Shown here: one piece after another, positions 3,174 through 25,058 of the stretch | Position numbering within the stretch: position 1 is the first letter of the stretch | Layout: the number at the start of each line of letters is the position of its first letter | Assembly (NCBI GenBank): GCA_008632985.1 | Contig: QPGO01000257.1 | Span: 62,001 to 87,058 of the forward strand | Origin: Psammoneis japonica | Lineage: Eukaryota | Reading direction: 5' to 3' | DNA: 25,058 nucleotides | Made by a program: the position numbers and the translations under genes | Notes under the pieces: model-generated | What the model saw: only the letters and a program-made list of their open reading frames with translations | The model's database searches: none | What the model was told of the DNA's origin: nothing

Positions 3174-3637
3174 TGTCCGTTGAAACTGATTGTACCCTGG
3201 AGCCTTAGCAAGGAAGATTGTGGTGACAAAACAGGTGCAACGACCCGACAGAAGCTGCTCCGTGATCGGTGACATCCTTATTTCGGTGCGACATATAGAC
3301 TCCGCCCTTGGGAGTTTGGAGTTTGCCGTTGTCAGAATTTCCAAATTTGAAACTTCCGGCAGTGCACATGTGGACAATGGACAGCTTGCCGAGTTCATTT
3401 TTGGTATGCCAGTACAAAGTTGTGTAGATCTGTACATACCAGTTTCTACGTACGTTTGTACTGCAATGGCAGTTGGACCCATCAGCTCATTCAAATTTGT
3501 ACGGCGACCTACCCGTGCTTGCCGCACTCACAATGGTGATGATACGACGGCGTTGTTTGTACTCTGACGCTACCTCTCCTCATCATATCTCCCCTTACCG
3601 TGGAGTTTAAGAATGTAACTGACAATCGCTTCAAGAA

Positions 3638-3981
3638 AATGGCCGGTTGTGACCGGGTCACAGGGGTTTTGTTTCGCCATGAAAAGACGCCGTTGGACCC
3701 ATCAACGTGACGTACAATGGTCGGTGTTGACATTGAGACGACAAGTTGACCCTATTTGAAGTGTCTTTAGCGCTGTCATGCGTTGGCATGCAGCATGGAA
3801 GACTCAGCAATGGCCGGTCGTGACCGAGTTGCAGGGGTTTTGTTTCGCCACAAAAAGACGCCGTTGGACCCATCAACATGACGCACAATGGTCGGTGTTG
3901 GAATTGCGACAATGCATTGATCCTATTTGAAGTATCCTTGGCGGTGTTACGACGTCAGTGTTCAGCATGGAAGACTCAGCA
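3638..3981 (+). repeat. Tandem duplication, 171-bp unit x2
   Basis: AATGGCCGGT...AAAAGACGCCGTTGGACCCATCAAC...CCTATTTGAAGT...CAGCATGGAAGACTCAGCA starts at 3638 and again at 3809. Confidence 0.9.
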
Positions 3982-4204
3982 GTTCTCAATGTGGTGGCAT
4001 GATGGTGGAGTTAGCTGGAGGCCAAGGAGGACTTGCCCTGAATGTGTTTCTGTGGATGCAAGAACCGCAAATGACGCATTGGCCCCATTGGAAGTTGCTT
4101 GAGCAGCACTGTGGCAAACACAACCGGTGTGGACGACTCAGCAGAGCTCAAATTGGTGGCATGACAGTGAGTTCAGCCTGATCCCAAGGAGGGCTTGTTC
4201 TGAA
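3973..4204 (+). repeat. Second, more diverged direct repeat (~70-bp core, ~162-bp spacing)
   Basis: GACTCAGCAG..CTCAA..TGGTGGCATGA...CCAAGGAGG.CTTG..CTGAA occurs at ~3973 and ~4135. Confidence 0.7.
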
Positions 4205-5933
4205 AAGGTCGCTCATCCAGGAACTGTGACTGGCTGCTTTGTCGTCCTTTTCTCCATGCAGCAGCAGTTTAGAGGGCTCTGCTTTGTGGGTGCAAACAAG
4301 CAACACTTCCAAAAATGTTTGTGGTTGTGGATGTCAACCAGTCACATGACAAATCTGTGACTGAGATGGAAATGCTGGAGAGCTGTTGAGTCGGCGGCGT
4401 TGTCCTCTTGTTGGACGAGCTAGAAGTCTCATCATTTGCTCTCCTGCTGCAGAGAGCATTGTGTGAATTGAACAGCAACTTGACACAGGAGATGACAGTG
4501 ACATTGGTGGAGGAGTTGGATGTGGTTGTCATTTGAGAATGATTCACAGTGGGGGGCGCAGGCCTCTGTTACGACCCAACAACATGCAAACAGCTGTGCA
4601 GTCCATTGAAGCTTCTGACCAGCTTTGAAGGCGACACATTTTTGTCTGTCAATGGACCAACCATCCACATGTTGTGTGACAACAATGTTTTGGCATTTTT
4701 GCTTTACATTCACAGTGTGCCAGCAACGCCATTTGCTCTCTCGCAAACTCTTCGTGCTTCGTGTTGTTCTCGTGTTGGAGCTCGCAGAGTTCGTGATGTT
4801 CGTGTGCTTGCATGAGAAACTGTCGCATGTAGAAGCATGTTGACTTTCCACTGGTGTGCCAAAAATGAAACTCGGCAAGCTGTCCATCGGCAATCGGCAT
4901 GTGTCCCACCCCTGCACAGGGAAGAGCACAATGGATGCACCGGCAATTTGGGCGTTCATGAAATTTTCATGTGCTGTTGTTCAACAAAATTTGGCATTGT
5001 TTGCACACAAAAAATGGTGTTGGCAGAGACAATTGAAGGCAACACCAAAGGCTTTGTTCTTTCCTTCACTTCTGACAGTCATCACTTTGGTGTCGCCACT
5101 GCCCGCCGGCCTTGGAGCACGTTCCAGCCCCAGGTGACGTGCAAAACGATGCTCCCTTTTGAGCACAATTTGTGCGAGCTTTGCACTTTGAGGTCGTCAA
5201 TTGAGGGCACTTGTGAGTTCTGGCTTTTGTGTTTGATTGGAGTGCAAACATTTGCGCAACTTTTTTCATCAGCACTCAAGCCCTCACAGGGTGTGTTGCA
5301 AAAATTTTTCTGTGGCGGAAATGATGCTGGCTGCATGTCAGACCAGCCTCCACTTGGGCCACGACTTTGCCCCCGTTGCATCACATGAGCGGCATGACAG
5401 ATTGTGCTGCCAAGTGTGGCAAGTGTGGAGATGGCCTGGGAACAGATGTTTTCATGCGCTGCACCATGATTTCTTGCATGCACTTTTTTTCACATTCCAT
5501 TTGTTCATTCTTTCAAACACAAGGCCTTTTTTGTGTTCTGTTTTTGACTTTTCTGTGGAACATGCCCTCGCACACTCCACATCAAAGTGTCAGCGATCGG
5601 AGTGCGATGGGGTCACACTCCGTTCCGACAACCAAGACAGCGGCACTCCATTTTCATGTGGAATGTGTTGAGGCCTCTTTGCATTCCATCATGACCAAGA
5701 AGAATGTCAAGCCTGTGTCTTCTGTGCACAGCAGCACTCCATGCACAGGAGGACAGAGGTCAACGCACTCTCACATTCTCTGGCATCGAAGTGTGATGAT
5801 GCCAACACGCTTGTGTCATTTGGCACACAGCATGGAATGAGAACATTGCAGCCAAGGCAATGAACATCGGCATGGTTCACGACACCACTGCTTGAATTCT
5901 CTCTGTTCATCTCTCTGTCACTGCGATGATTCA

Positions 5934-5957
5934 AACAACAACAACAACAACAACAAC
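5934..5957 (+). repeat. (AAC)8 microsatellite
   Basis: Eight perfect AAC units. Confidence 0.9.
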
Positions 5958-8025
5958 ATCAAGATGGGCAGGGGATGGGGGCGTTGTCATGGGGGCCCCA
6001 GATTGCACCTGAGTTTTTGTGTCATCTTTTGGTCACAGAAAATGTTGTTCAATTCATTCATTTCTGAATTTGCATCAAATTCTCTGTTGCATTTAGCACA
6101 ACAATGCAGAAGTGATGGTTGAGGTCCTCAAACAGAATTGGAACGAGAATCCTGAAATCTGCACTTGCCCCATTCATTGCAACATGGCACACACTCAAAC
6201 ACACACTTTCAAAAATGAGTGAAGCAACAGTTCGAACCTCAGGAGTGACCGATGGACACAGAAAACAATGTGGAAAACATTTGCAGTCACATTTGATGTT
6301 CATTTGACAACACCTGGCAAAACATCATTTGGCTCTGCATGTTTTCTTTTTCGGTGTAGAACACACGACGATTGACGCCAGAGGAGAGGAGTCTCATTGG
6401 ATGCAGTTTTTTCTCTCACTTCTCACCCGCTCTTGCACAAACCAGAAACACAACAGAGCTGCAGCATCTGAAGCAACAACAGCAAAGAATGGCAGCACAT
6501 GATTGGGCGGTTTGATGGGTGATGATTGTGGCATGCTTGACGGCAAGTTGTGATGGGATTGCTCAGAACTTCAAAGTTTGCTTGCACTTGCATTTTCTTT
6601 TCTCTCTTTGCTGTTGAGGTTTGTTTTCCACAGGGTTCTGATTCCAAGCATGGCTGCTCTCTGCAGCTGAGAGAGTGGTGCTGCATTGCTGCCTGCTCCA
6701 TTTTCTAATGACAGAGATGTGTGGGCAGTCGTGTCCATCAACAGCCTGCAAGTGCCACCTTTTTTGTTTTTTCTGCAACCTTGAACCTGTTGCTCACTTT
6801 TTACTTTGACTCATTGTGCTCATGTTTGGGAAAGGTTGAGGCACCCCTTGTCATCCAGCAGGCAACCAAGATCATCAAAAGAAGAAATGCATCATTCTGA
6901 GATTCGGCTGAGCGGTGCTTCGAAGCAATCGGTCAATCAAGGGAGGGCAGAGCACCAGCATGGGTGGAGCAGGAGTTCTTGTTCAATGGAAATGCAGCAG
7001 CAGCACCATGGCTTCACTTTAGAATTTCACTTCATTCCACTGCAAGCTCTGCATCACACGCTTTGGTTGAGTGCAAGGAATCCACAAACAGAGGGCAGCA
7101 AAAGGAGTGGCAAATGGAGCACAAAACAAATGGCCTCTTTTCAACAAAAGAAGTGATGAAATGGGCACAGGCATCACTCATCTAATCAAAATTGTGCAGT
7201 GCACACATCCAGTTTTTGTTGTTTTTTGCATCATTTCTGCAAGCACTGCATTGCTGACGAGTGCAAACAATGTCATTTCTTGTTTGACCTCAAATGCTGT
7301 GTTTGTTGTTTCCGCAAAGGAGTCCATGAGACATGAAGACACATCGGACATTTTCCCACACAAAGGCCTGACATCATCTTCCACCAATTTGGTTGAGCCT
7401 TTGACGCCAAATGAGGCCGGTGTCAGGCAGCTCTGATGCACGCCTGCCTGGAAAGACCTCTGTGACATCGCTGCTGATGCAAGTTCAGATCACACTGCAT
7501 GTTTGAATGAAAGTCATTTGAGTGCAGTTGTTGCATTTCTTTGTCAACAATGTCTGACAAATGAGCAATTGTCCAGAACAACAAATGACAAACACTGGAT
7601 CGGTGACCCCTGCACGCAAATTGCGCCCCAGGTGCAGAGTGTGGCACATGCGCTGGAATGTGATGCAGATTTTGACGAGGCTTTTTTGTTCTGCACCCTG
7701 TTGCTCGCAATCCATTTTGAGGCCTTTCTTGAAGGAGCCACACACACATTCCATGTGATTCCATGGATTCTTGTTTCCTGTGCAAGTGTGATGAAGCTCA
7801 GGAATTTTGCACTTTGCAGCATGGGCACAGGTTGTTTTTGTGCCCTGCACACAGAAAAAATCCAAAGCAAGCTCTGGGATGCACCCACTCTCCATTGTGA
7901 GTCTGTGTGTTGACCATTCTTTGCATGTGCACTTGCACGCACCCAAAGGCAACAGCAATCTTTTGGCTCTCAGAGTCATTTTGGCCAGCGCAGCAGCCAA
8001 ATTCAATTGGCGCTGATGTGAGCCA

Positions 8026-8421
8026 GACGCGTTCCAGCCCTAGGTGGGAGCTCGTAGTGCTGACGTGTGACAACAATAATTTTTATCATCCGTCGTATGT
8101 TTCGTACGTAGATTTCTACGTGTGACATTTAAAAAAAATTGTCCAGACTCGCTGTTTTGCGAAGCCCCAGACGTTTTATGTGACATATTTATAGAAACAA
8201 TAATGCGCCAGTTACATTCTTCAATGTCTGAAGAATGTAACTGGCTAAGTAAAAAATGATGTACTTCAATCATGTGCGAGTTTGTGCGTTCGCAAAATTG
8301 CCTCATTTTCTGTTGGCGATCATTGACATTTAAATTACCGTATAATTTTACTACGGAGCTCGCACGTAGAAGTCTACGGGCCCAATGTCACACGGATTCC
8401 CACCTACGTCTGGAACGCGTC
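8026..8421. mobile_element. MITE, 396 bp, with imperfect ~24-bp TIRs and 4-bp TSD GCCA
   Basis: Left end is GACGCGTTCCAGCCCTAGGTGGGA; the reverse complement of the right end is GACGCGTTCCAGACGTAGGTGGGA. GCCA flanks both sides (8022-8025, 8422-8425). It has subterminal GTGTGACA motifs and an AT-rich non-coding interior. Confidence 0.85.
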
Positions 8422-9445
8422 GCCAACAGAAAATTTTGTTTGGCACTTCTTGTCATGCGACATGTGAAACGCAAAAATTCTGGGTGTCTTTCGAAATCAC
8501 ATCCTTGCAATCTGCAGTGCCCTCAAGAAAGCAATGGCGATGCATTGTTTTGCATCATGGGAGGATGCTCAGCCAAACCCCAGCTGCCCTTGCATCAGGA
8601 TCAACTGGTTGTGGGCCAGCATCTCCACAGGTGAATTTTTTTTGTGGGTTGCAGCGCCGCAGCACTTGAGAACAAAATCAATGACGCCAACAGCATCTGC
8701 ACCAGAGCAGCTGATGTTGCAGCAAATGGGGGTTGGGGAGTGTCAATCTTTGTCCCACTTTGGCTGATGCCATCCAAAGCAAACTGTCAAGTTTGCAATT
8801 GGCAATGTCTCAGAGTGACACATCCCTGAAGTTTGCCAATCAGGCTGGAGCCTTTGGGTGGCAAAAGACAAGATTGTGGCTTTGTCCTTCATCAGAGCAT
8901 GCAATGCAGTGATCCAGACCTCCATTCTCATGATGATGTTTTTTCCTTTTGCAGTTAAAAATTCAATGGTTTCAAACCTCATCAGTTGTGTGCGTGGCGA
9001 CAATTTGTCATCCATGAAAGATGAGCTTTGTTGCTGTGGAGCCCCCCAACCATCCTGTGAGGTGACACCACTCACTGTGAAACAGCCAACCCTTTCCCTG
9101 TGAGAGTGCCCGCCCTCCATTCCTGCAAAACCTGCAAATTAAAATCATTTTTTGTGTTGCAAAATGTCCTGTTTTGTTGTTTGCATTTCATTTGAATGAT
9201 GCTGACAGAGACAACGCCATGATGCCTGAGGCTTGCCATCCAGAGACACAAGCCCAGCGGAGATGCTGCTGACAACACTCCAGTCTGCCCCTGCATGGGA
9301 GTTGAGCTGAGCAGCAGGGGACCAAAGAAGGTGTCATGCGCCAGTGCAAAGGGGAGAGGCAAAGCCTGTCAGACAAATCTGGACAAGAGCAGTGCCAAAA
9401 AAATGCAGGCAAAGAGCCGTCTTCTCCACCCTGCATGTCTCACCT

Positions 9446-9718
9446 TTTGCCATCAAGAGCATGTGTGATGGCTTGGTTGTGCATGATTTGAAGGGAGGGT
9501 TCTCCACAATTGCCACCTCGAACCACAATGGCATTGGCAACTTGCAGTGTTGTCTCAATGTCTTGTGCATTTGACGCTTGTCAATTCCGGAGCAAGAGAC
9601 CGACCAGGCCACAACAACGGTGGGTGTTGCAATGGTCCTCAACAAATGCCTTGGTTGCAGTGGCCCACAATTGAGAGTCGTCTTGATCAAACTCAGCATC
9701 CATCATTCCTTGCAGTGT
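9446..9718 (-). pseudogene. Pseudogene fragment paralogous to the juxtamembrane extracellular domain of the FG-GAP gene (22664-22930)
   Basis: My translation TLQGMMDAEFDQDDSQLWATATKAFVEDHCNTHRCCGLVGLLLRN*QASNAQDIETTLQVANAIVVRGGNCGEPSLQIMHNQAITH aligns with SLVGMDTEFDTVDTDLWTATTELFVEDFYNTRRRRRGLSTLLRVLQVSNIQNMETTLSVTKTSVVRNGNGTNSSLQVIYNQAVTY. This frame is not in the ORF track. Confidence 0.85.
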
Positions 9719-11741
9719 GTGGCAAGAAAAGTGTCATTGCAAGAAACAAACACCCGTCAGATTCTTGCTGAGAACAACTGACAAGTTGAGACACAAGATG
9801 ACTGCAGCTCCTGCTCCAGATGCATCGGACTTGCCACCAACGGATGTGGACAACATCAATGATGTGGGCACACCTCCAAGCCATGCACAGCAAACATTGA
9901 CCTCTGCTCCACCAAATGAGGGAGGCTCACAAACAACAAGTGCCACTTCTGAAGCTTCTGCAGCTGACTCAGGATCGCCAACCCCAATGGTCACAACACA
10001 CTCATGTTGTGGACAGTTCATCAATGACACATTTGGAGTGTGGACCAGAAACAGCAGAGAGAAGCTCAAGCATCCTCCAATGGGTTGCCTCCCCACTCTC
10101 TGCCTCTGCAGTCTTTCTGGATCAGTGCACAAGAATTGGAGAAGATGGGTGCAACATCAGCAAACACATGAAAAACAAGTGAACCTCTTTTTGCACATGC
10201 CACCTTGTTTGAAGATTGTCATTTGTGGTGACTTGCGATGACTCTAGATGCAAAACTCTGACATGCGCAATCAATGCTGCAGAAAAAATTGTGATGTGCG
10301 TGCACACAACAACACGCTGTTTCGGCATTCTGGATGATGATTTTTTGACGTGGCAGATTCGTGACAGCACACTCACGATCTTGAAACTCAAGCGATGCCC
10401 CCCATTCAAAAACCGTCTTTGCCAGCCATGAGGACAGCAGGTCTCGCCATGCATTGAGCTGCTGTCATGGGCCAATGGGGCAATGTCTTTCACCGCCATG
10501 GAAGGTTGCCGGCTTTGCAGATTTTGAGATCACACGCAGAGTCCACGTGAATCACAACAGCGCACACTCTCATTTTTTTAATTTTGGGGAGAGGGTGCAC
10601 TGTCATGAAGTGTGCAGGAAATTGCACATGTAAAAAAAAATGCTGAAAATGCCGCAGACCAATGGGCTGTGAAGCATGAAGAAATTTTTTTAAATGAGGG
10701 TGGGTCACGTGTCAAGTGCTGCATGAAGTGCACTGCACACATGCAAAGACACACGCGCGTGAGTGGGGAAGACAAAGTTAAAACCAAGTTCAAATTGATG
10801 ACCATCAAAAGGAAACCAAACCATGCATCACATTTTGACCCCCAACCAAATTAAACATTGCACGCATTTGATCGAAGCTTGTGCAAGAAAAGCAAGTGAG
10901 ACATCAGATGAAATGCACAAAACAGTTGAATTTTGTCGAGCACTTTTGCTGGCAATTTTTAAATTTTGCTTGTCAACAATTTTAACAGCGCACATTAAAA
11001 AATTGACAAAGGAAAGTGGAAACCACCACATTGCAGCCTCTGATGTTTGTGTTCCACACCAATCACATCAGGAGGCAGGAGGAGCATTTGGTGCAAGGGA
11101 TGGAAAGAGCCTGGATTTTTGATGTTCAGGCTCAAGGGACCAGAGCATTCTGAAATTGCTCATGTCAGAGGCGAGCTTTTCAAATCCTTTCCACATGAGC
11201 TTGTGTCACATTTGACATTGTTTGTTGATCTGAGCACCTCGTGTTTGGTGTTTGATGGTGTCTTGAGTGTTTCCAAGGCACTTGTCCAAATCCTCAACTG
11301 TGGGCAAGAGTCTGCAGGACGACTCTGTTGAGACAGGTGGTGCACTGGAATTTCTGATGTGGCACTTGAGTTCATCCAACATGCTGCTGATGCAACAAAC
11401 CCTTGGGATGCAGCGTCAAGAACTTGACATGATCAGCTGGCAACCCTGTCTGAGCTGTTGGGTGAGTCTGCTGTGGGCAGGTTGCAAGTGAAACACCAAC
11501 TCAAAGTCGGCACCACAGCCCACCTCAAGCTGAATGACTGCATCAATCATGCCACTGGCTCTGAAGAAGAGGAAAATGAGTTTCAAAAAAGAAAAACCCA
11601 TCGCGGCATTGGCACTCTCCACAATCGCCTTTTCATTTGGCTTCACATCTGCCAAGTCTTCCTTGAGAGCAACAAGCAATTTCCTGCTGCTGATCCTCTC
11701 CTTCAATCATTCTCTTTTGTCTTCCATGGAACCACAAATGC

Positions 11742-12533
11742 TCATCTGTCTGAGGTTTGACTCTCTGTCAAACAGTTCACCAAAGTTTGTTGCTTCATCT
11801 GTGGCCTCTGGCTGGAAATCAATTGACAAAAGGTCATGATTGCCTGCACCCATTCCTGTTTCAGACAGTCTTGTCTTTGTTTCTCTGTCTTTGGGCAACA
11901 TTTTTCCCACAGTTGTTTGCAGACAAGCCAACTCCTTGTCCAGTTTCTCAACAAATGTTTCATCACCAATCTCTTGGTGGTGGCAAAAAGCCACTCGTTG
12001 TTGCCTCTGTGCAGCTCTTTGCACCTTTGGCATTTCTTGGCTTTTGGCACAGCACAGATGTCAGATTTGTGTGGGCAGCATGGGCAAAAGTGTTCAGCCA
12101 CCTCACAAGCTCCACCTTTGTGAAGGCCCTTTTGATGGGCAATGTGGTCACCAGTGTGTGATGGTTTCAGAGTTTCTGTGTCTTCATTCAAAGATTCCTC
12201 CCCACAGTCATTCATGAATTCATGGAAATCTTCAAACAGATTGAGTGTCTCATGGCTCTCCTGACCTGTCATCACTTGAAATGGGAAACAGCAGCAGCTG
12301 GATTGTGCTGTTGCTGCACTGCTTGTGACCACCAAGCTGGCAAGTTTGTCTGTTGGTTTGACACCTGCCATGATGTTCTTGTCACACTTGTTGAGTGTCA
12401 TGCTGTCAACAGCAGCACTCACTTTTCCACTCTTCTCCTGGCTGCTTTGTCCCACAGGCGGTGTGCTTTTGACAATGTGGCGAGTGTTGGGGTTGAACAT
12501 TGGCACGAGTGCTTTCCCGTCTTGTGCTGCCAC
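11742..12533 (-). pseudogene. Degenerate DDE transposase fragment with RAG1/Transib-like motif order
   Basis: QSSCCCFPFQVMTGQESHETL resembles RAG1 [22 protein letters not shown]. Downstream TGD..AHQKGL.KGG.....FCPCC resembles the second catalytic Asp plus CxxC region. The third catalytic region is not recognisable. Confidence 0.45.
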
Positions 12534-12949
12534 CTCAACTTTTTTTGCTGTGCCACACAGAGCTCAGGTCAATGGCATCACACCATGAAAATGCCTGGCA
12601 CCACCACTTTCCACTGACTGAAGAACCGCAACTCCTGAGTGTGACAGCTTTGATCCAGCAAGATCCATGGCTCTTAGAAGTTTAGAGGGTTTGAGTGCAT
12701 TCTCCCCAAACCATTTCCAAGGCCGCTTGACATGCTTCCACAGAAGTCATCTGAGAAAACAGTGCCCACCACTGTTGTGTTGGTCTTCTTCATGCTGACC
12801 TTGTTGCATTGGCAGTTTGACCACTCTTCTAAAAAGGTTCGCAGCTCTTCCTTTGTGTCCACTTCATTGCTTGATGCACCCTCATCTTCCTCAGATTCTT
12901 CCTCTTTTTTTTTTCTTCAATGTCGTCACCATCATCTTCTTTTTCTTCT

Positions 12950-13135
12950 AAAGAAAAAAAAAAACAAAAAACAAAAAACCAAACCCAATTTAAAGTGCTG
13001 TTGCACCTTTGCCCAGCAACGCTGGCTCCAGCCAACCCACACCTCCAGTGCACCCAGTGAGGGGTGCGGCAGAAGCGGACTTGATTGGCCTGAATCAGCA
13101 TCTCCCTGAGGAGATGCCCGATGGAAATGGTTGGT
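12950..13135 (-). mobile_element. 3'-terminal fragment of a LINE related to the element at 19420-20780
   Basis: The reverse complement aligns with ~20610-20780 (stem-loop, GGCCAAT, CTGCCGCACCC, GTGCACTGG, CAGCACT) and ends in a T-rich (TTTTTG) tail. Confidence 0.7.
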
Positions 13136-13184
13136 GCAGAGAGCACAATGACACTTGAAGTTTGCTGCAGCATTGCTGGTGACA

Positions 13185-13616
13185 TGCAGCATGCCTTGCT
13201 GCTGGACAACACGGCGAGACCGTGCACAAGCCTCTTGCCCGTGGCAATGCAGCATTGTCAACACGCACCTGGGAAGCATGACCACAGGAGGGCGTGGCTC
13301 CAGGTCTCAGGCAATTCCAGAAGGGTGCTAAGAGAGCATCCGTGTGAAGCACACCAGCCCGTCGTCTGGCCCATGATGGTGGCGTGATTCCACATGATGA
13401 CATCACTCGTGCACAGCGCGTGATGGCTTGATTCGCACGATCCACAATGCGAACGCACGATCGATTTGATGCGATCCAAATGCGAACGAACAGGGATTTG
13501 GCAAGATTCCCTGTTCACACGATCCCATTTTCTCTGCTCTAAACTAGCTCACAATTTTCACAACGACAAAGTCGCAACACATCTTCTTTTTCAGCGCCCA
13601 GCACACACACAGGGCA
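13185..13616 (+). repeat. 5' LTR (432 bp)
   Basis: TGCAG...GGGCA; about 90% identical to 18054-18486. Confidence 0.95.
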
Positions 13617-13677
13617 CAGTGATGTTGCTCCCGCATGTTGTGCGAGGCAACGAAATCTACAGAAACAAAACTACGAA

Positions 13678-14754
13678 ATGTTGGCAGGACCGACAAATCT
13701 TAAAACGACCATGAAGAAGCGGATTGAGCCGCCAATTCCGTTCGCACGGCCGGAGAAGAAAGAGCTGCAGCAGGGCGAGTGCCAGACGTTCAAGCTGCGT
13801 AACAACCCTGCTGATCCGGACAGTCCAACACACGAGATGGGCATTCCGCACCTTTCCACGGCTACATGCGAGACACTCCTGATCTTTCTGCGCAACGTAG
13901 ATCGCGTGCATGAAGGACAAAACATCACGACTGGGCCAGCGAAATTTGCCCTCATGCGTGACCCACTGCAAGGTGATGCTCTGACGTCATTTAACAATGC
14001 CGCTGACAAGCAGGCATCCCAAACCAACGCCACGCACGCAGCATGCGTCGCGAAGCTAAAGGAAAGCATCTTCCCACATGGGGCGGCACTGTTGCAGAAG
14101 CGTTGTCTGAGGCGCTTCATGCGCAAGCCCGCAGAGGTTTCTGCTCGTGACTGCGTCGCGAGGGCTGTTGAAATTAACGGCTGTGTCTCTCAGTTTCCAC
14201 CCGTGATGGAGGATGGAGAAGCACAGGCACCATCACCCAATGACAAACTGTGCGACATGTTCGAGTGCGGTGTGCCGAACGCATGGCAGAAATTCATGAC
14301 GCCACAGAATTTTGACCCGTTGGCGCATGCTGTCACCGAATTTGTGCAGTTCTGCGAGCGCATTGAGCAGGTCGAGCTTGCCGAAGGTAACCTGGACCAA
14401 CATGCCAAGGTTCCACGCAAGCGGGGACGTAGAACGGACAATCCTGAGTCGTTGATTACGACCCAACGGAACACCCAGAAGTCATGCATGCCACACGGGA
14501 CCAACTGTGGACATCATGCGGAGGATTGCCGTCAGCTCAAGCACCACACAAAACGTGTCAAGACTGGACATTCCAATGACGGAGGCAGCAAACCCAGTGC
14601 AAAACCCTGGAATGAGGAAGACATTGATGCTCTCATCAGATCGAAGGTCGAGGAGTTCTTTGCCAATGCTCAGAAAAAGCGCAAGGCACGCGAGGAGGAG
14701 CTCAATCACTTCCGCGACCTCAACTCAAGCGATTCCGAAGATTCGGGCACTTGA
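13678..14754 (+). pseudogene. gag: Gag (358 aa, open frame but hypermutated; contains no Tyr)
   Basis: It follows the 5' LTR and has a LRRFMRKP/EIN...FPP segment, a zinc-knuckle-like CMPHGTNCGHHAEDC and an acidic C-terminus. Confidence 0.85.
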
Positions 14755-17700
14755 GAAGGGGGCCCACACGACACAGGCAGCTTCAATGCATTGGACGAAT
14801 GCACAAATGAACAACTGAATTACCATCGTACACGTGTTGCAGGCCAATCCTGCAAACGAGTTAAAAAGACTCATCTTGCTCCAATCTTGTTCACAACTGT
14901 GAATGCCAAACATGGCAAGGGCAAGACTCAAACCATTAAGGCACTGCCAGATAGTGGCGCCAGCAGCACTCTACTCGACAGTCGACACTGCAAACGTCTG
15001 CGAAGCCATTCAACGGCTGAGACAAACTGGACTACGGTAGCAGGCTCGTTTAGTACGTCTAACGACTGTACCGTTAAATTTCGGTTACCAGAATTATCCG
15101 AAACTGCAGAACTTAAACATACCGTCCACGTACACAACGGAAAGTTGGGCAAGTACGATATGATTATTGGACGTGACATTCTGGAGACACAAGGCATTGA
15201 TATTGTCTTCTCTAAACAGATGATAGAGTGGCCATTAGTCAATGGAGAAGTACCAATGAGGCACGTAGATGCTACGGTAGAAACCTCCTTCTATCTTCAA
15301 GATCCAGAAGCCTTATCTTCGGAAACCAACCGGATTTCGCGTATTTTAGACGCTAAGTACGCGCCGGCCTGCCTTGAGGACATAACGCGATAGGCAATAG
15401 GATTTTTCTATAGTTCAATAAAACGACCTTTTGGCATTATTGAAACGCCATGAGTCCTTATTTGATGGGACATTAGGAGAATGGAAGGGAGAACCCTACC
15501 ATATCCAACTCAAGGAGGGTGTAGAACCATACCACGCTCGTCCGTATAAAGTACCTCGTGCGTACGAAGCTACGCTACGTAAAGAAGTAGAACGCCTAGT
15601 GCGCATCGGTGTTCTCAAACGCGTTAACCGATCCCAATGGGCAGCTCCATCATTTATCACACCGAAGAAAGATTTAACGGTGCGCTTTATTGATGATTTC
15701 AGAGAGCTGAATAAACGGATCAAGCGATTGCCTTGTCCGATTCCTCATGTCCAAGACATGCCACTTGAGCTCGAAGGCTTTGTGTGGGCCACATCGCTGG
15801 ACCCCAAATGTGGGCTGTCATCACATCCGATTGGATGCTGACAGCAAGAAGCTCTGCACGCTCATCTTCCCGTGGGGCAAGCATGAGATGCAGGCATTGC
15901 CCATGGGATTGTGCAACTCGCCAGACATTTTCCAAGAACGCATGTCAGGCTCATTTGAAGATCTGTCGTTCGTTCGAACGCACTTAGATGACCTTCTCGT
16001 CGTGACGAAAGGCACCCATGAAGATCACCTCAACAAACTTGAAGAAGTTTTGTTGAGGGTCCAGAAAGCAGGACTAAAAGTCAACGCAACTAAATCTCAC
16101 TTCTGTCAAACCCAATTAGAATGCTTGGGTTGTCCAGTTGACAGAGACGGAACACGACCAACACCTGATAAAGTCGACGCCATTGAGCGAATCGCGACCC
16201 CAGCCAATGAACGCGACCTGCGCTCATTTGTTGGCATGGTGAACTGCCACCGTGACATGTGGACCAGACGTTCTGAAGTCTTGGCTCTGCCAACACGACT
16301 CGTGAGCGAGACTGTTGAGTGGAAGTGGACGTCCGTTGAAGACGAGGCGTTCGAAACCGTTGAACGGGTGACATCGGATGATGTTTTGTTGTCACATCCT
16401 GATTTTAACAAACCCTTTGAGGTGCATGCCGATGCCTCTAAATGTCAATTGGGAGCAGTTGCATCCCAAGACAATAAACCCATCGCCTTTTACACCAGAA
16501 AGCTTGGTGGTGCACAATTAAATTGCACAACAACGGAGAGAGAATCGCTCGCCATTGTGGAGACGTTGAAAGAATTTCGAATGATTCTCCTTGGTCATCG
16601 TGCAATTGCACACTGATCATAAAAATCTTGTGCACAAAGCATTCAATGCTGAGCGCGTCATGCGCTGGCGGCCAACATGTGAAGAATGCGGTCCCGAATT
16701 ACGCTGTGTTGAGGGTGCCCACAACCCAGTCGCTGATGCTCTTAGTCGCCTTCGGCTGGCACCCAGCTTGCCTTCCGAGGCCAATCCGGATGTAAAAGAC
16801 ACTCCATCGAGTCGTCCTTTGCATGAAGCTTTTAATGCAGACGTGCAAGATGAGCTGTCTCTGCCTGTTGGCTTCAAGCGCATTCAAAAAGCACAACAAA
16901 AGGACAAGCGCCCACTCTCATCAGCCAAGGACTCGTCCGACCACTCCATTCGCGCGCATCGTGGGGGAGGGTCATCACGACAGTTAATCTGTCACAAGGA
17001 CAAAATCACAGCACCACAGTCATTGCATTGTTCCGCTAACTGAATGGTGCCACAAGACACTGTGTCATCCAGGTGAGACACGCACGGAAATGTCTGTTGC
17101 CCAGCACTTCCATTGGCCTGGCATGAGGTCTACGGTGCATTCTACGTGCGTCAAGTGCGATCGATGCCAGAAGACAAAATGCCGAACGCAGCATTGTGGG
17201 AAGCTGCCAGAAAAGGTCGCAGAGATGATTCCATGGGAGACTCCATGCACAGATGTGATGGGGCCACATAAAATTCAAAGACGCGGAAAGGACACTTTGC
17301 AATTGTGGGCAGTCACAATGATTGACCCAGCAACCGGGTGGTTTGAGATTAAAGAAGTGTCTGCGAAACGCGCAGACGTCGCAGCAAACGTCGTGGAACA
17401 AACATGGCCATGCAGATGTCCGTGGCCAACCCAGGTGGTTCATGACCGTGGGACAGAATTCATGGCAGAATTTAGCCAGATGATTAAAAATGACTGTGGG
17501 ATTTTGAAGAAACCCATGAGCAAACGGAATCCACAAGCGAGTGCCATGGTGGAACGTGCACACCAGACACTTGGCAACATGGTGTGTTCCTTTTCAGCAC
17601 AGGATGTGGAGCTGGACGAAGATGACCCATGGAGTGGCATCCTCTCCGCAGTGGCCTTCGCTGTTAGAGCTGCGGCACATGCGACCACGCATGCAAGTCC

Positions 17701-18013
17701 CATGCAATTGGTCTTCAGACGTGATGCGGTTTCATCTGTTGCTCATCGTGCCAAGTGGAAGCACATAGAAACCAGAAAGCAGAAGCTTGTCCACTTGAAC
17801 AACAAACGTGAAAATCAGAAACGCAAGGAGTGTCAACATGCTGCAGGGCAATTGGCACTTGTCAAACAGGAACAATCCTCGAAATGCGGTTCTGACAGCC
17901 ATGCAGGACCCGCCAGAATTGTCCGCGTGTGTGACAACGGCACGTTGCGTGTCCAGAACGGAGCGCTGACAGACACGTGCAATCTACGGCAGATTGCACC
18001 CCATCACCAGTGA
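14755..18013 (+). pseudogene. pol: Pol: aspartic protease, reverse transcriptase, RNase H, integrase; broken by stops and frameshifts (~15391-15421, ~15802, ~16600, ~17035)
   Basis: PR: ALPDSGAS and DMIIGRD. RT: WAAPSF, DFRELNK, LPMGL, HLDDLLV. RH: ADAS..QLGAV, TTTERE, TDHKNL, NPVADALSRL. INT: H..LCHPG..C..C, then D(VMGP), D(RGTEF), E(RAHQTL). No chromodomain. Confidence 0.95.
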
Positions 18014-18043
18014 GACATCCTGTCACTTGACGGCCCTGATCAT

Positions 18044-18051
18044 GGGGGGAG
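18044..18051 (+). other. Polypurine tract
   Basis: GGGGGGAG ending 2 nt upstream of the 3' LTR. Confidence 0.8.
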
Positions 18052-18053
18052 TG

Positions 18054-18486
18054 TGCAGTGTGCCTCGCCACTGGACAACACGGCGAGACTGTGCATGAGC
18101 CTCTTGTGCGTGGCAACACAGTGTTGTCAACACGTGCCTGGGAAGCACGACCACAGGAGGGCGTGGCTCTGGGTCTCAGGCAGTTCCAGAAGGATGCCAA
18201 GAGAGCATCCGTGTGAAGCACACTGGCCCGTCGTCTGGCCCACGATGGCAGCGTGATTCCACACGATGACATCACTCGTGCATGGCGCATGATGGCTTGA
18301 TTCGCACGATCCACAATGCGAATGCACGGTCGATTTGATGCGATCCAAATGCAAACGAACAGGGATTTGGCAAGATTCCCCATTCACATGATCCCATTTT
18401 CTCTGCTCTAAACCCAGCTCACAATTTTCACAACGACAAAGTCGCAACACATCTTCTTTTTCAGCGCCCAGCACATGCATGGGGCA
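18054..18486 (+). repeat. 3' LTR (433 bp)
   Basis: TGCAG...GGGCA followed by TSD GACA. Confidence 0.95.
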
Positions 18487-19419
18487 GACACACACGTTGG
18501 TTGCACCACCACCACAGAGGACAGCTGCATTTGGGAAAAATTCACACAAGAGCCACAAAGGGAGCCAAAAGGAAGACAAAGGAAGAGCGCCAAACCACTG
18601 GCTGTCCCTCATCAAGTGGGAAACCTCATTCAAACCTTGAAGAAATGAAACAATGAAAGATCACTGCATGCAACCGAGAGCTTGATTTGCCAGTGAGAGA
18701 GGGAGAGTTTGCCCAGAACTGGGAGACAAGAAATGGGAGTGCTTGATGATTCGATGAGTCGGTCATCAGGAAAGACATTTTTCACACATGGAAGCTGCAC
18801 CGGATCTTGCACAGAAATGCCGTTGTGCACAGCAAATGGATGGAAATCACTTGTTGCCGAAGGGAGGCTCATGCTCACACTCGTCAGCATCACAGCAGAA
18901 GCAGCGCTTTCACCACACAAGCAGCGAAGGACTTGATTGGCTGATGGGGACAAAGAGAGTCATTGGAAATGGAAGAGCACTGGCGTGAGAAGCTTGGAGA
19001 CTTGACGAAATCTGTGTAGAAAATTTCTTGGATCTGGAGAAAATGATGAAAAGAGTCAACATGCATGCGACCCATGAGGAGTCAATGCCAGTTGTTTTCC
19101 ACTTGGCAACATTGCTTGGCATGCTGAAATGAAGGCACGCCATTGACAGAAAGGGCCAGCATGGTCGTGGGAGACCCAGCAAAAACTGCCGTCTGAGAAG
19201 GGTGACATCAGTGTGAGAGCGCACGCAGAAACACACACAGGGTTTCTTGGTGGGTGGCTGCCGCAGAATTGTTCTTTTTCTTCTAAAGATTCTTCATTGT
19301 TGTCATCTTGTTGGCTTGCCTCTGCCACCATCTTTCCTTCCAGAGCCTCCTTCTCTTTTTTGGGCCACCCTTGTTTTTGCGGTTCATTGCTGCAGCAGCT
19401 TTGCGGTGGTGGGTCATCA

Positions 19420-20780
19420 CATCTGATTTGTGGCGGCATGTCATCCATGAGATCTTTGCTTCATTGACAAGCTTGGAGGCCCAACATGACGGACACCCTG
19501 CAAGCAATGTTGTCGACATGAAGTGGATTAAAAGCCATCAGGATGACAACACTCCTTTTGAGTCCCTCCCATTTCCAGCAAAATTGAATGTCAGAGCTGA
19601 CAGATTGGCAGGTCTGCTTCAGGGTCAATGCACTGGAGATGCCTCAATGGCCCCCCACATGCCCCATTGCTCTGCATTGCCAAACGTCCAGCCGGCATCA
19701 GTGAACTCGAAGTTTAAATCAGTTCTCCATTGCAAAGCTTCCAGCACAGCCCTGATGCAACACATGAAGGAGAAGTGCAGATGGTCTGACTCAGTGCGCG
19801 AATCTGTTGATTGGAGAGTGCATTCCAAACTGATGTCTTGCAACATCCGACGAAAGGTGAGCACCGTGAAATTGGTCCAAGATTTGCTGCTGACGAACAA
19901 GATTATCCACAGACATGATCCCACACGCCCCGACTGCTGCATGCATTGCCAACACCCCCTTGAAGATGGGGATCACATTCTGCGTTGCGCTCACAATGAA
20001 TCATGGCGGTGCACGTTTCTCCAAGGATTGCGGAAGAAATGTGATGACATGCATGCACCCCTGTCTGTGCGAGACCTGTTGTCACATGCCTTGGAAGGTT
20101 GGTTCAACAAGGAATTGCTTTGTTCTGCCCACGTCCATCACAGCATCACAGAGTTGTTTCGATCTCAAGACGACATCGGTTGGCGTCACATTTTCAGCAG
20201 GTGTGTTTCTTCATTGTGGAACAAGTCACAAATGCCACACTTGGTGTCCTCTGGCTTGTGTTGCTCCTTGTCCGATAAAGACAAAAGATTAGACTGGGCG
20301 GCAACAATTGGCAGTTGCGTGTGGTCACAATGGCGGGAATTGTGGGACTCCCACAATGACGCAGTGCACGGACATGATTCCGAGACGAGAAAGTCTTTGC
20401 AACGATGGGGTGCAGAGGCGGAGGTTAAAGAAATTTGCTCAAGGGCAGACGAGCACTTGGCCCGTGACTGAGCAGAGTTGTTTGATTCAGCAGATGAACA
20501 TCTCACCCATTCCACCCACAGACTCCGAAATTGGCTCGCCGCGGCAAAGCCAATGTTCAAGTCGAGCATCCGAGAGGCCCGGCGTCCAGCTGTCAGAGGC
20601 ACGCACACCATTGCAAGCTGCTTTGGTGTGGCATCACCCGAGGGTGATGCCGATCTTGGCCAATTGTTGCATGCTCCTGCCGCACCCAGTGCACTGGGAG
20701 TGTGGGCTGGCTTGTTGCCGGAGTTGCAGGGTGGAAGCGTGGCAGCACTCAAAGTTGGATTTTGGGTTTTGTTTTGATTT
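19420..20780 (+). mobile_element. 5'-truncated non-LTR retrotransposon (LINE with RNase H and C-terminal CCHC; diatom Ambal-like type)
   Basis: RNase H C-terminal motif WIKSHQDD...AKLNVRADRLA, zinc knuckle CMHC..LEDGDHILRC, Q..IGW and W..HN..VHG. There is an internal TGA at 20469; the ORF ends near TIASCF, followed by a 3' UTR and T-rich tail. No Tyr in the 387-aa ORF. Confidence 0.8.
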
Positions 20781-21360
20781 GTGGTGGCATGCTTGATGCT
20801 TCATCTCCAGCTTCTGTGTGGGGCCAATCAACAATGTGTGGTTGACTTCATGCTGACACCTCACACTGCTGCACTTTGCCTTGCCACCAAGGAGATGCTT
20901 CTCCTTGTCCCACAGGTCACAGTTGTGGCACAGAACATGTGGGCAATCTCAAAATGCAGTGCACCTGTTGATGCCACAGTTGCAGCAAGCAACAACAGCA
21001 CATCCCCTTCTTTGAAGCATGCAGCTGGTGGATGGCCATGTGTGAGAACTCTGGCTTGGCTTGGCTGCTCTGCTCTTGCCCTTGAGACCGTTGGGGAGCT
21101 GGGGGGTGGCTGAGCCAGAATGTCCAGCAATTCTTCCAGCAAGCCTCTTGCTGGCATGCAGTGCAGCCAGAGCCATTGTGCTCATCTCATGTCTCTTCTG
21201 CATCGGCATGTTCCGCATCTCGTCTGCTCTTTTTGGAAACTGGGCTGGCAATTTCTGCAGGTTCCCACGCAGGAGGATGCACTGAGAATGTTGACGTCCC
21301 CAACCCAAATCAGAACACCGTCTTAGCCAGTTCTGTTTCGGTGAAAAACGGACTTGACTC

Positions 21361-21419
21361 TTAACTGATCAGGTGCATTTTTTGTCAACACATTTGCAGC
21401 AATGCGCCTGATCAGATAA
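21361..21419. repeat. 19-bp imperfect inverted repeat with 21-nt spacer
   Basis: TTAACTGATCAGGTGCATT vs the reverse complement of AATGCGCCTGATCAGATAA (17/19). Confidence 0.75.
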
Positions 21420-21825
21420 GAGTCAAGTCAATTTTTGCAACAACTGTGAGCAAACTGCTAGTGGCAGTTTCAGTAGATTCTACGAAGAGCCATAAGTAAT
21501 TTTGGCGTTTTCCGTGAGGGGTCATTTTCGAAAGATTCCTACCATGTCCTCCTCTGGAGAGGTGACGGAGACCGGCTGTCATCAACGGCCGGCTTCCGGA
21601 TGGCATTTATGGGGTCATCTCAGAAATGACTTGAAAACCGATCAATAAACACAAGATGACCTCTGGGCAATAGAAATCTAATAAGTCATTGCCAATGGCA
21701 TTTTCGGAAATACTCTAAACGAACACTCTTCACACACTTTTTATGTTGTGCAGCTTTGGCAAGAGCGAATTACAAAATGAGTTCGCATCTGCTTTAGAGC
21801 GACAAGGATAGCTACTACCGGCATC

Positions 21826-24460
21826 ATGATGAACCGTTCCAGCGAGTTCTGCGAGTTTGACAAAGACGATGACCACCAAGACTTGTGCGACATGTCCGGT
21901 GGCGGCGATATAATCATGAGCCGTATGGACGAAGACGGAGAAGAAACCAAGAAGAACCATGGGATGGAGGATCATCCTGGCACTAGCACGACAAAGCAGA
22001 TATGGCGGGCCGCTCTTGGCAGCCAGCAGCTAAAGCACCGAGAGGTTGAAGAGTTGAATGTAGAAGAAGAACAACAACAACAACTTCAGACAATTGCAGA
22101 AGCTGCAGACAACACTCTGATTGTTTCCCATGCCGCACTCATTGATACGAGTGGCTCAGGCACTGCCTCGGCTGGGGCCTTTGCTGTTGGTCGCGCAGGG
22201 CGACTAGTTCGACGCGAGAGAAATACTGATGCTGATTCTCAATTTTCTGAAATCGAAACTGTACGCTCCGATCATAGTGATGCCCTTTTGACACCTCCAC
22301 AGACGCAGCCTGAAAGTAGCGACGGCAACGTACTCATCGAAGCACATCTCGCCGAACCAGGGGGGATCTTGAGGTACGGGTTGCCCGTCTCGAAGAAGGG
22401 ATTCGAAATGCAGAAGTTGCCCAAGTTGTAGATGACTCACATGAGGAGAGCACTAACAAGAAGCAGCTCGTGTTGAAGAAACGACGCTTGTCGAAGGTGA
22501 TAGCGACGAAGATATCAGGCGGAAGCGTCGCCTTCGATGCATCATTATTCTAGGGATTGTGGTGATCATTGCGGCGATTGTAGGTATAACCGTCGGACTC
22601 CTTTCTGGCGGCTCAGGCAGTGGCCCAACCAGAGTGACCAAAAATGCAAGCGGGTTGGTTATGAGTTTGGTTGGCATGGACACGGAATTTGATACCGTCG
22701 ACACGGACTTGTGGACCGCAACAACGGAGCTATTTGTAGAAGATTTCTACAACACCCGTCGTCGTCGTCGTGGCTTGAGTACTTTGCTTCGGGTTTTACA
22801 AGTGTCGAATATACAAAATATGGAGACGACCCTCAGCGTTACCAAGACCAGTGTAGTCCGAAACGGCAATGGCACCAATTCATCTCTACAAGTAATATAC
22901 AACCAAGCCGTTACGTATACTCCCGGCCAGAACAACCACGAAGTGTCCATGGATGAGTTGGCGACCGAGCCATTCGAAACATCTGCTAGGAGATTGGCCT
23001 ACGTGGAGGACCTTCGGACGGCAGCGACAAAAGCGGGAAATGGTATTTTTGAGAAATTGGTTACTACTAGCGAAGTCACAACTTCAGCAAGAGTGCCAAC
23101 ACCGTTACCCATGACAAGTTCCCCGGCAAGTGAGTCTTCAACGATAGACCCGGACTCGCCACCGTCTACTCCGGTTCCAACGACATCGCGCCCTACCTTG
23201 AATCCTACTCCACCCCGTGCTACGCAAGCTCCGACAAGCAATCCGAATGATTTGATTCCAAATGGTCCGTGGCAACCATTTGGACAAGTCTTGCATGGCA
23301 AAGCTGGAAGCGATTACTTTGGTAAATCCGTCTCCTTGTCACGTGATGGAATGGTCATGGCGGTAGGTGCAGAGCAATCTTCCAGCAATCCCGGCTATGT
23401 TTTTGTCCACAAATACGATCAAGCTACTCGGCAATGGTCACGCATTGGACAAGAATTGATTGGGCAAGCCAGAGGTGACAATTTTGGTACTTCCTTATCT
23501 CTCAATGGTGACGGAACGATCCTCGCGGTTGGGGCTGACCAGCATGACAGTGATAGTACAAAAAATACAGGTTATGTCCAAATTTTTGAATACAACTCTT
23601 CTTCAGATTGGTGGGTCCAACTTGGCAACGTCATCCCCGGACAAGCTGCTGGTGATTGGTTTGGTCATTCCATTTCGCTGTCGGGCGAGGGAGACACCGT
23701 AGCTGTCGGAGCCTGGGGTGAAAACACGGCAAATGGCAATGATTCCGGGTCGGTGCGGTGTTTTCAACTTATACGCAGTAAGGCATCTTGGGACAAACTT
23801 GGACAAACCCTGATTGGTCAAGCCGAGGATGATGACTTTGGCATTTCCGTGTCCTTGAGTCACTCAGGCACGGTTGTTGCCGCTGGAGCAGATGAAAGCG
23901 ACATAGGTGGAAGCAGTGCAGGTCAAGTATCGGTGTTTGAATGTGATTCTTTGTCATCAAGGTGGGATTCATTGGGCGATCCAATCAATGGACAAAATAT
24001 ACCTGGCTATTTTGGAGCTTCTGTTTCGCTTGATGACGGTGGTTTGATAGTGGCGGTGGGTGCACCAGGAGAAGATGAGAGGGTGCTTGTTTATGAGCAT
24101 CATAGGGACACGTCGACATGGAGTCAACGAGGCCAAACTCTTTTAACAAAACAGCCTGATGATGATTTTGGTTGGTCAGTGTCATTGAGCGGAAATGGAA
24201 GTGTCATGGCTGTTGGAAGTTGGGAGCATGACGTTGATGGGTTGACCAACGCGGGTCAAGTCAGAATCTTTCAATTCGACATCACCACAAATGAATGGGA
24301 TCAAGTTGGGGATCCTTTGAATGGCGCGGCTGAATGGGATGAATTTGGGGTGTCTGTGTCCTTGTCAGCTGACGGAAGCATTGTTGGAGCTGGCGCAATG
24401 TTCACGGATGCCAATGGAGAGGATTCTGGATCTGTTCATACATTTGCAATCAACAAGTGA
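21826..24460 (+). CDS. Type II single-pass membrane protein with P/T/S-rich stalk and 7-bladed FG-GAP (integrin-alpha-like) beta-propeller; reading frame discontinuous at 22360-22460
   Basis: Acidic, disordered N-terminus (with GAFAV), RRKRR plus TM IIILGIVVIIAAIVGITVGLL, a PTPLP..APTS linker, and seven FG.SVSLS.DG...AVGA repeats. Confidence 0.85.
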
Positions 24461-24589
24461 ACAACTTTAGCCCTTTCCATCTTTGCCATGTACGGCAGTT
24501 GCTTCGTGCACCACTGCGGGTGTGGCATGAAGAAAAAACAGCTTTTTCGAACAATGTAATTAGGATGACTGAATTTACCAGTGTGTGCA

Positions 24590-25058
24590 CCATCATGGAG
24601 CATTTCTGCGAAACGGGGCGTCACGTGATTTTGTCACTTTGTTGATTCATGCTGGCTCCTGCTTTGACATTTGTGGCAATGCGAGACCCAACACCAGGCT
24701 GTCCACATGCCCTGTGGAGACTCTCAATTGTTCAGTCTTGGAGCAGACACCCCCAAAAATTCCTCTGGTCAAATCACCAAGCTGTTGCTTCTGCAGCAAT
24801 CTCTTGTGGGGACCACAGCAGCTCCCATCTCGGTGGCCTGCCAGCTCCTTCCACACTCACTTGCACTTTGGCTCTGAAACCATGAAACAACACAGCTGCT
24901 CTTGACCCACCCACTTTGTGCGGAGCATGCTGCCACTGTGTGGGGGCTGCAACTGGCCATTTAAAAATTTTTCATTTGGGAGACCCAAGCGCTCTTTGCT
25001 GTGGTTCAGCTGGGGCTGTCGTTTTTGCTGCTGTGAGCAATTTTTTGCGCCAAAGCCT
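24590..25058. repeat. Start of another TpA-depleted, unclassified repeat region
   Basis: Only one TA (TTTAAA at ~24961) in ~470 bp; CA/TG-rich; no recognisable protein. Confidence 0.6.

Follow-up and report, generated by a model that had tools for sequence, protein, structure and literature searches.

The question raised by this locus is why the two long terminal repeats (LTRs) of a single retrotransposon insertion, which are copied from one template, came to differ at about every tenth position, and to do so almost exclusively by transitions. The insertion lies in a stretch of 25,058 nucleotides of Psammoneis japonica (contig QPGO01000257.1, positions 62,001 to 87,058), hereafter referred to as the window, and by its sequence it is a Ty3/gypsy-type LTR retrotransposon. 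The original prediction, made from the letters of the window alone, ascribed the LTR differences to mutation of TA dinucleotides on either DNA strand, taking place after insertion and independently in each LTR copy. In the analysis described here, TpA-directed post-insertion hypermutation of the integrated retrotransposon emerged as the best explanation of the data, and we consider it very probable. The element comprises the following parts.

13181-13184, plus strand: target-site duplication GACA, 5′ copy, identical to 18487-18490
13185-13616, plus strand: 5′ LTR, 432 bp, with TG...CA ends and three TA left
13617-18053, plus strand: internal region with a gag-like open reading frame (ORF) followed by protease, reverse transcriptase, RNase H and integrase, broken into six frames (Pfam, tblastn)
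14755-15393, plus strand: aspartyl protease part of pol (Pfam; tblastn high-scoring segment pair 14761-15390)
15428-16616, plus strand: reverse transcriptase (RVT_1) and RNase H (Pfam, tblastn)
16988-18013, plus strand: integrase, comprising an H2C2 zinc finger and the rve core (Pfam)
18054-18486, plus strand: 3′ LTR, 433 bp, with TG...CA ends and one TA left
18487-18490, plus strand: target-site duplication GACA, 3′ copy

The 4-bp duplication GACA is present at both element ends, so both LTRs belong to one insertion rather than to a recombinant of two, and the polypurine run GGGGGGAG is located immediately upstream of the 3′ LTR. The gag-like ORF had no Pfam match. The Asp_protease_2 match (E-value 1.9e-4, 22.5 bits versus 24.3) is below the curated Pfam cut-off, as is the rve match; 92 Pol homologues align across both the protease and the rve regions in tblastn. 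At least 120 homologues were found, the 120 listed being polyproteins with 55-64% identity on metagenome-derived contigs, carrying RVT_1, RNase H and, mostly, rve as well.

The two LTRs, aligned globally with MAFFT, are 90.07% identical and differ in 43 columns. Every count of the difference classes given in the original prediction, which had relied on a manual alignment, was reproduced: there are 13 reciprocal CA/TG doublets, nine sites (of the 30 LTR CpG sites) with CG in one LTR and TG or CA in the other, two TA-versus-CA differences (13329 and 13545), three remaining transitions (13314, 13325 and 13460) and one single-base indel, the sole transversion being carried by one CC/TG doublet. 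The dinucleotides common to both LTRs comprise 21 CG (roughly 20 in the original prediction), 47 CA, 26 TG and a single TA. Such clustering of substitutions into adjacent pairs is not produced by chance, as random placement of 42 substitutions over 432 columns yielded 4.0 adjacent pairs on average and 13 at most, with 14 or more in 0 of 20000 trials. After purine/pyrimidine recoding, in which transitions are hidden, the LTRs are 99.5% identical.

The LTR pair reveals that the two copies diverged, and the direction of the change can be read from the pol gene, where a part of the element has escaped mutation:

15033-15712, plus strand: unmutated island inside the element, 680 bp, with 55 TA, TA observed/expected ratio (o/e) 1.06 and CG o/e 1.27

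The island, preceded by a partly depleted shoulder (14821-15032), shares the reading frame of pol and does not represent an insert. For the analysis of codons, the 92 Pol homologues (at least 950 residues each) were aligned by tblastn, and columns covered by at least 30 homologues with at least 70% agreement were kept, which resulted in 429 conserved columns in the mutated part (75% identical to the element) and 112 columns in 14821-15712 (86% identical). The 22 conserved Tyr columns of the mutated part are now occupied by TGY (Cys) in ten cases, CAY (His) in nine, and TGG, TTC and TAC in one case each; TAC is found at all three conserved Tyr columns of the island. As for the 31 conserved Arg columns of the mutated part, 19 CGN and nine AGR codons were kept, the others being TGT, GCA and AAT, with CGN intact at 19 of 20 conserved columns. 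The 106 changed columns include 25 A>G changes after T, 21 T>C changes before A, six other A>G or T>C, four changes of CpG type, 22 transversions and 28 multi-step replacements; i.e., 52 of the 56 single-step transitions are A>G or T>C, and 46 of these 52 fall in a TpA step. The products at these columns (25 TG and 21 CA) indicate that both strands were hit. None of the conserved His, Gln, Cys or Trp columns had turned into Arg, as a relaxed CA>CG motif would have it, and thus CpG is not being created. The process is directed from A:T to G:C and is specific to TpA: some 95% of the TA steps in the element were turned into TG or CA, versus a loss of about 5% of the CpGs of the selected codons. 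Among 78 related metagenome gypsy loci, the median TA o/e is 0.77 and the minimum 0.52, versus 0.17 in the mutated parts of the element.

These observations bear on the ancestral state of the LTR doublet sites, for which decay of CpG and loss of TA were compared as models. The best fit of a uniform CpG model gives 13.4 intact, 24.1 single-hit and 5.4 opposite-hit sites against the observed 21, 9 and 13 (chi-square 24.4, 1 degree of freedom), and the CpG rate derived from intact versus single-hit sites predicts 0.48 opposite doublets where 13 are observed. The claim that CpG decay cannot produce 13 doublets has thus withstood a formal comparison with a uniform CpG rate, and so has its counterpart, that ancestral TA mutated on opposite strands can: under the TA model with a loss of p = 0.93 per copy, 0.14 intact, 3.7 single-hit and 12.2 opposite-hit sites are expected and 1, 2 and 13 are observed. 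The 93% TA loss in the LTRs agrees with the 95% found at Tyr codons. With about 13 hidden same-direction sites counted in, the ancestral LTR under the TA model (29 ancestral TA) has a TA o/e of 0.99, a CG o/e of 1.17 and a GC content of 48%, and resembles the unmutated island of the same element, the GC content of which is 45%; the ancestral LTR under the CpG model (TA o/e 0.18, CG o/e 1.41, GC 61%) does not. The origin of the doublets from TA is thus supported by three independent lines of evidence, namely pol codons, model statistics and composition.

Since the LTRs of one insertion differ, the changes must have arisen in the chromosome after insertion. Read on the coding strand, the outcomes are 23 CA and 25 TG, and they alternate along the sequence as random ones do (27 runs with 25.0 expected, z = 0.6). 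The balance and random order of the outcomes exclude editing of sense RNA, as well as a single processive event on one strand, a candidate which was rejected as no strand-coherent runs were seen. The DNA flanking the element, which does not belong to it, was mutated in the same way. On these three grounds (LTR differences, strand balance and mutated flanks) both the post-insertional, copy-independent nature of the mutation and the exclusion of editing of the RNA or cDNA intermediate, as originally put forward, were upheld. Simple arithmetic gives approximately 2.65 hits per TA site in the LTRs, 0.16 per CpG site and 0.005 per site for background transitions, so that the TA hit rate is ~500 times that of background transitions and ~16 times that of CpG decay. 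If TA- and CG-derived sites are set aside, 3 of ~314 columns (~1%) differ between the LTRs, versus 10% naively; consequently, naive LTR divergence overstates the age of the insertion roughly ten-fold, in line with the overestimation initially foreseen.

The depletion of TA extends beyond the element and ends near the host genes on both sides. The composition of this region is characterized by the following features.

3950-21320, no strand assigned: hypermutated domain around the element, TA o/e 0.04-0.17, CA/TG o/e 1.5-2.0
360-3527, minus strand: host gene of a class C G protein-coupled receptor (GPCR; ANF_receptor and 7tm_3), TA o/e 0.62, CG o/e 0.86
22457-24460, plus strand: host gene of an FG-GAP_2 repeat protein, TA o/e 0.59 and CG o/e 0.95 up to ~24140
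8026-8421, no strand assigned: insertion resembling a miniature inverted-repeat transposable element (MITE), 396 bp, having terminal inverted repeats of 24 nt that are 92% complementary, and a duplication of 4 bp (GCCA)

In 1-kb segments of 4001-21000 the TA o/e is mostly 0.00-0.12 versus 0.5-0.7 in the host genes. The process is confined to the domain and has spared the host genes: the domain begins, through a transition zone at 3620-3950, ~100 bp past the GPCR ORF and ends ~450 bp ahead of the next ORF. Outside the element, the domain has a TA o/e of 0.04-0.05 and a CG o/e of 0.26-0.43, and the mutated parts of the element have 0.17 and 0.85, respectively. Judging from these ratios, the element is a younger insert in a domain that is older and had already undergone mutation and CpG decay. 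The MITE-like insert, with a TA o/e of 0.85, normal CG and a perfect internal 17-bp hairpin (8207-8245), stands amid the TA-free domain and probably arrived after hypermutation had stopped there. Both spared pieces, this insert and the island in pol, suggest that the domain is not being mutated at present, which fits the episodic behaviour described for Bigelowiella natans in the preprint of Mettrop et al. (bioRxiv 10.64898/2026.01.13.699255). As to the origin of the island, our guesses are, in order, gene conversion at a later time with an unmutated copy or its cDNA as donor, then local protection, and then an assembly mosaic. Pieces of other family copies at the island differ from the window by 13-16%.

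The surviving TA steps also point to a preference wider than two bases. Among the 78 TAs left in 16 kb of mutated DNA, none is RTAY and 50 are YTAR (R, purine; Y, pyrimidine), while the unmutated baseline of 284 TAs from the host genes, the island and the MITE-like insert contains 90 RTAY and 41 YTAR (chi-square; element, p = 3e-10; older domain, p = 3e-16; element compared with the island only, p = 8e-5). The survivors are enriched 6.5-fold in TTAA and 4.4-fold in CTAA/TTAG and include no ATAC, GTAC or ATAT, and the TAs remaining in the LTRs (three) are all Y-TA-R. Such a bias suggests that the mutating activity prefers a four-base context, R-TA-Y being lost more readily than Y-TA-R.

Other copies of the family were sought in the contigs of a DNA run (X1, in a separate Logan assembly), of which 5757, at least 80% alike, were placed on positions 12500-18040; this run may be the source sample of the window. 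It contains a fraction of 0.58 of the sampled words of the window, and two further runs (X2 and X3) contain next to none. In terms of summed word depth, which is not a copy number, the flank 12500-12869 shows values of 139-163, the element interior ~9,800-22,300 and the LTRs ~67,700-72,400. Variation among the X1 contigs consists of 575 transition places versus 43 transversion places, and 1041 of the 5757 contigs are at least 99% alike to the window. Among the 40 variable places listed out of 623, none of which lies in an LTR, CA>TG doublets set the window apart from all other contigs at 14549-50 and 16135-36, and at 13898-99 and 14457 the window has TA where all other contigs have TG or CA. 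A loose-end consensus of other copies reads TTTATG and GCTACAT versus TTTGTG and GCCACAT in the window. The sequences thus point to a high-copy family, each copy of which was mutated in its own way. Near 15403/4 and 15805 the reading frame of pol is shifted; other family copies are one base shorter at each place, so that the window copy carries two one-base insertions (15403-15404 and 15805). The LTRs themselves gave no further relatives: purine/pyrimidine self-comparison detected no other LTR copy in the window, and a 33-letter degenerate LTR pattern matched twice in the window (both LTRs) and never in the metagenome_contigs or viral_contigs collections.

Several other explanations of these data deserve consideration. 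The doublets could derive from ancestral CpG, a methylated CG having turned into TG in one LTR and into CA in the other, provided that hypermutable CpGs stood beside protected ones. CpG decay does operate in the region, as is seen from the nine CG-versus-TG/CA sites of the LTRs and from the low CG o/e of the older domain; nevertheless, besides the failure of the uniform model, intact CGs are located within 0-3 bp of the doublets, which argues against regional methylation differences, the very element that lost 21 of 22 Tyr codons has kept 19 of 20 conserved CGN Arg codons, and the ancestral LTR implied by such an origin is unlike the unmutated island. Taking these facts into account, we find the derivation from CpG highly improbable. 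An equally slight chance is given to mutation before integration, either by editing (ADAR-like A-to-I conversion on RNA, or editing on cDNA) or through recombination, the LTRs then stemming from two mutated elements. ADAR-type enzymes favour a 5′ U, according to the preprint (bioRxiv 10.64898/2026.01.13.699255), and the family has many independently mutated copies, both of which speak for this view. The matching GACA duplications contradict a recombinational origin, and editing of sense RNA would yield only A>G on the coding strand, not the balance of outcomes observed. Moreover, ~26 TA-derived positions differ between LTRs that had one template, and the flanking DNA, which does not belong to the element, was mutated likewise; the LTR differences by themselves have largely refuted these possibilities.

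Without any enzymatic targeting, either selection against TA or GC-biased gene conversion might also maintain the odd composition, and a mild under-representation of TA is indeed seen in the host genes (o/e ~0.6). However, the Tyr codons that were changed are conserved ones of a dead element, the young MITE-like insert and the 680-bp island have normal TA within the same domain, and GC-biased conversion is generally known not to be dinucleotide-specific, all of which renders this explanation scarcely credible. Finally, the TA steps could be intact in the chromosome and appear as CA or TG owing to a sequencing or assembly artefact, i.e., miscalling of a modified base. In favour of this, the domain is sharply bounded and overlaps with CpG decay, which is how a modified heterochromatic block would behave; on the other hand, a separate assembly contains 0.58 of the sampled words of the window, with many near-identical contigs, and the same pattern of transitions recurs in thousands of variant contigs. 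Miscalling at modified bases is quite improbable, mainly because identical contexts in the two LTRs gave opposite outcomes at 13 sites, and a systematic miscall should follow the context. At the same time, certain observations weigh against TpA-directed hypermutation or weaken its support. The only run containing the stretch may be its source sample, so its agreement with the window is not an independent proof, and for the 13 LTR doublet sites themselves no outgroup copy revealed what the ancestral bases had been. Six of the 56 single-step transitions in pol are A>G or T>C outside TpA, and at ~15802-15805 the window has CCCC versus TTT in other copies, a T>C cluster which is not all at TpA. 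In addition, the island kept all its TAs, an escape that a uniform domain-wide process would not predict.

Considering TpA-directed hypermutation as the most plausible reading, the following course of events is very probable. A Ty3/gypsy-type element with a roughly normal TA content inserted into an already degraded intergenic domain, where a locally targeted process then converted chromosomal TpA to TpG or CpA (A:T>G:C on either strand). The hits were independent from site to site and from LTR to LTR and continued up to a TA loss of ~93-95%, in the course of which R-TA-Y sites were lost completely and Y-TA-R sites (TTAA, CTAA/TTAG) lasted longest. The leading candidate for the enzyme responsible is a DNA adenine deaminase of the ADAT/TadA kind, by analogy with the proposal made for B. 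natans in the preprint cited above (bioRxiv 10.64898/2026.01.13.699255), a thymine-modifying enzyme being the alternative. Presumably, the role of the process is to protect the genome from mobile or foreign DNA, and chromatin or RNA would guide it to its targets.

The surroundings of the element contain several further features. The GPCR ORF has an in-frame stop between its ANF_receptor and 7tm_3 halves, and, as this stop falls inside an apparent GT-AG intron of ~75 nt (~1674-1748, minus strand), the gene is probably intact. The named eukaryotic matches of the host-gene proteins are diatoms, with 26-38% identity: those of the FG-GAP_2 protein belong to Cyclotella, Cylindrotheca and Cyclostephanos, and three of the four GPCR matches belong to Skeletonema, the fourth being an MMETSP transcript. 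A near-identical protein was found for neither host gene in the collection searched, which includes EukProt and MMETSP. By these matches, the window is probably not from B. natans, and its host probably lies outside the chlorarachniophytes. TA becomes scarce again at ~24150-25058, with no TA in 24200-24399 and 24600-24899; as this covers the last ~300 bp of the FG-GAP_2 ORF, a second hypermutated domain may start in or just after the 3′ end of that gene. In the transition zone, 3638-4204 contains tandem direct-repeat pairs of 139 nt (85% identity) and 75 nt (76% identity), which may alternatively be viewed as one duplication of ~400 bp with 86% identity after purine/pyrimidine recoding. Both strands of 4000-21300 contain numerous long stop-to-stop ORFs (up to 394 aa) without a family match; probably, these ORFs are a by-product of the loss of TAA and TAG rather than genes. 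For the domain outside the element, a Pfam search with 95 such ORFs gave no family above threshold and one weak YxzE match, tblastn with the 92 Pol homologues revealed no further gypsy remnant, and no Rfam matches were obtained in the domain. In the Atlas, the rest of the domain matched only unnamed eukaryotic clusters, most commonly of Bacillariophyta, which is a weak lead.

It is instructive to compare this process with known systems. Repeat-induced point mutation (RIP) of ascomycete fungi changes C:G to T:A, mostly CpA to TpA, whereby it enriches TA, and it requires duplicated sequence. Like RIP, the process described here is post-integrational, acts at the DNA level, causes transitions only, is specific to a dinucleotide, ruins mobile elements while sparing the genes next to them, and makes LTRs look more diverged; unlike RIP, it proceeds in the opposite direction, leaving a TA o/e of 0.04-0.17. 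The flank 12500-12869, of low word depth (again, not a copy number), is TA-free. With CpG decay of silenced repeats it shares the generation of TG and CA from a palindromic YR step on either strand. CpG decay itself runs as a slower second process at this locus, accounting for neither the doublets nor the Tyr losses. ADAR and APOBEC likewise cause deaminase-type hypermutation of retroelements, and the 5′ U favoured by ADAR, as mentioned in the preprint, is a further similarity; these enzymes, however, act before integration and on one strand, leaving the LTRs alike, and APOBEC causes C>T/G>A.

The closest counterpart is the localized TpA hypermutation of integrated viral DNA in B. natans, reported in April 2026 (Mettrop et al., bioRxiv 10.64898/2026.01.13.699255), on the main text of which the following comparison is based. 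In mutation-accumulation lines of that organism, 231 of 302 new mutations fell in integrated giant-virus and virophage regions, at a rate ~1000-fold over that of the rest of the genome, and all but one of the 231 were A>G or T>C, those being all at TpA; TpA-poor coding sequences were enriched for reverse-transcriptase and DDE domains, and an ADAT2-like deaminase was proposed as the enzyme (bioRxiv 10.64898/2026.01.13.699255). The two cases agree in that A:T>G:C changes occur almost exclusively, at TpA, and give TpG or CpA depending on the strand, and in that the process is confined to regions derived from foreign or mobile DNA with the host sequence remaining normal, although in our case the domain content outside the element had no Pfam family above threshold. 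TpA-depleted clusters rich in CpA and TpG are described genome-wide for B. natans. The two cases differ in target and extent: the giant-virus and virophage inserts of B. natans are far from saturation, TpA making up 3.3% and 9.2% of dinucleotides there, and in the window a high-copy LTR retrotransposon and its surroundings are depleted by 83-96%. The main text of the preprint nowhere uses the words LTR, gypsy, retrotranspos, flanking or context. Hence, the kind of process is already in print, and the LTR pairs, near-saturation, RTAY/YTAR bias and coupling with CpG decay are absent from that main text. In a full-text literature search this preprint was the one match, and neither TpA hypermutation in diatoms nor its traces in LTR pairs were the subject of any paper returned.

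Taken together, the results make it quite possible, if still a tentative view, that defence by TpA-directed hypermutation of DNA, a "RIP in reverse", is not restricted to a single chlorarachniophyte and operates in a diatom-like alga as well, where it would bring new retrotransposons to near-complete TA loss within ~1% of background divergence, with an extended R-TA-Y preference and in an episodic manner. The LTR pair serves here as a natural experiment that demonstrates post-integration action and gives the relative rates, TA being hit far more often than CpG, and CpG far more often than the rest; the reciprocal CA/TG doublet provides a simple assay applicable to any genome, and the RTAY-over-YTAR bias is a signature to be compared with those of candidate deaminases, which could fingerprint the enzyme. 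In such genomes, dates derived from LTR divergence are inflated about ten-fold, the loss of TAA and TAG creates long spurious stop-to-stop ORFs, and mutated elements escape homology searches. If the window comes from outside the chlorarachniophytes, which its host genes suggest, TpA hypermutation would be a recurring eukaryotic defence and not a curiosity of a single species; if the proposed defence is real, it may represent an old and widespread eukaryotic form of genome protection, detectable from LTR pairs alone in any assembly.

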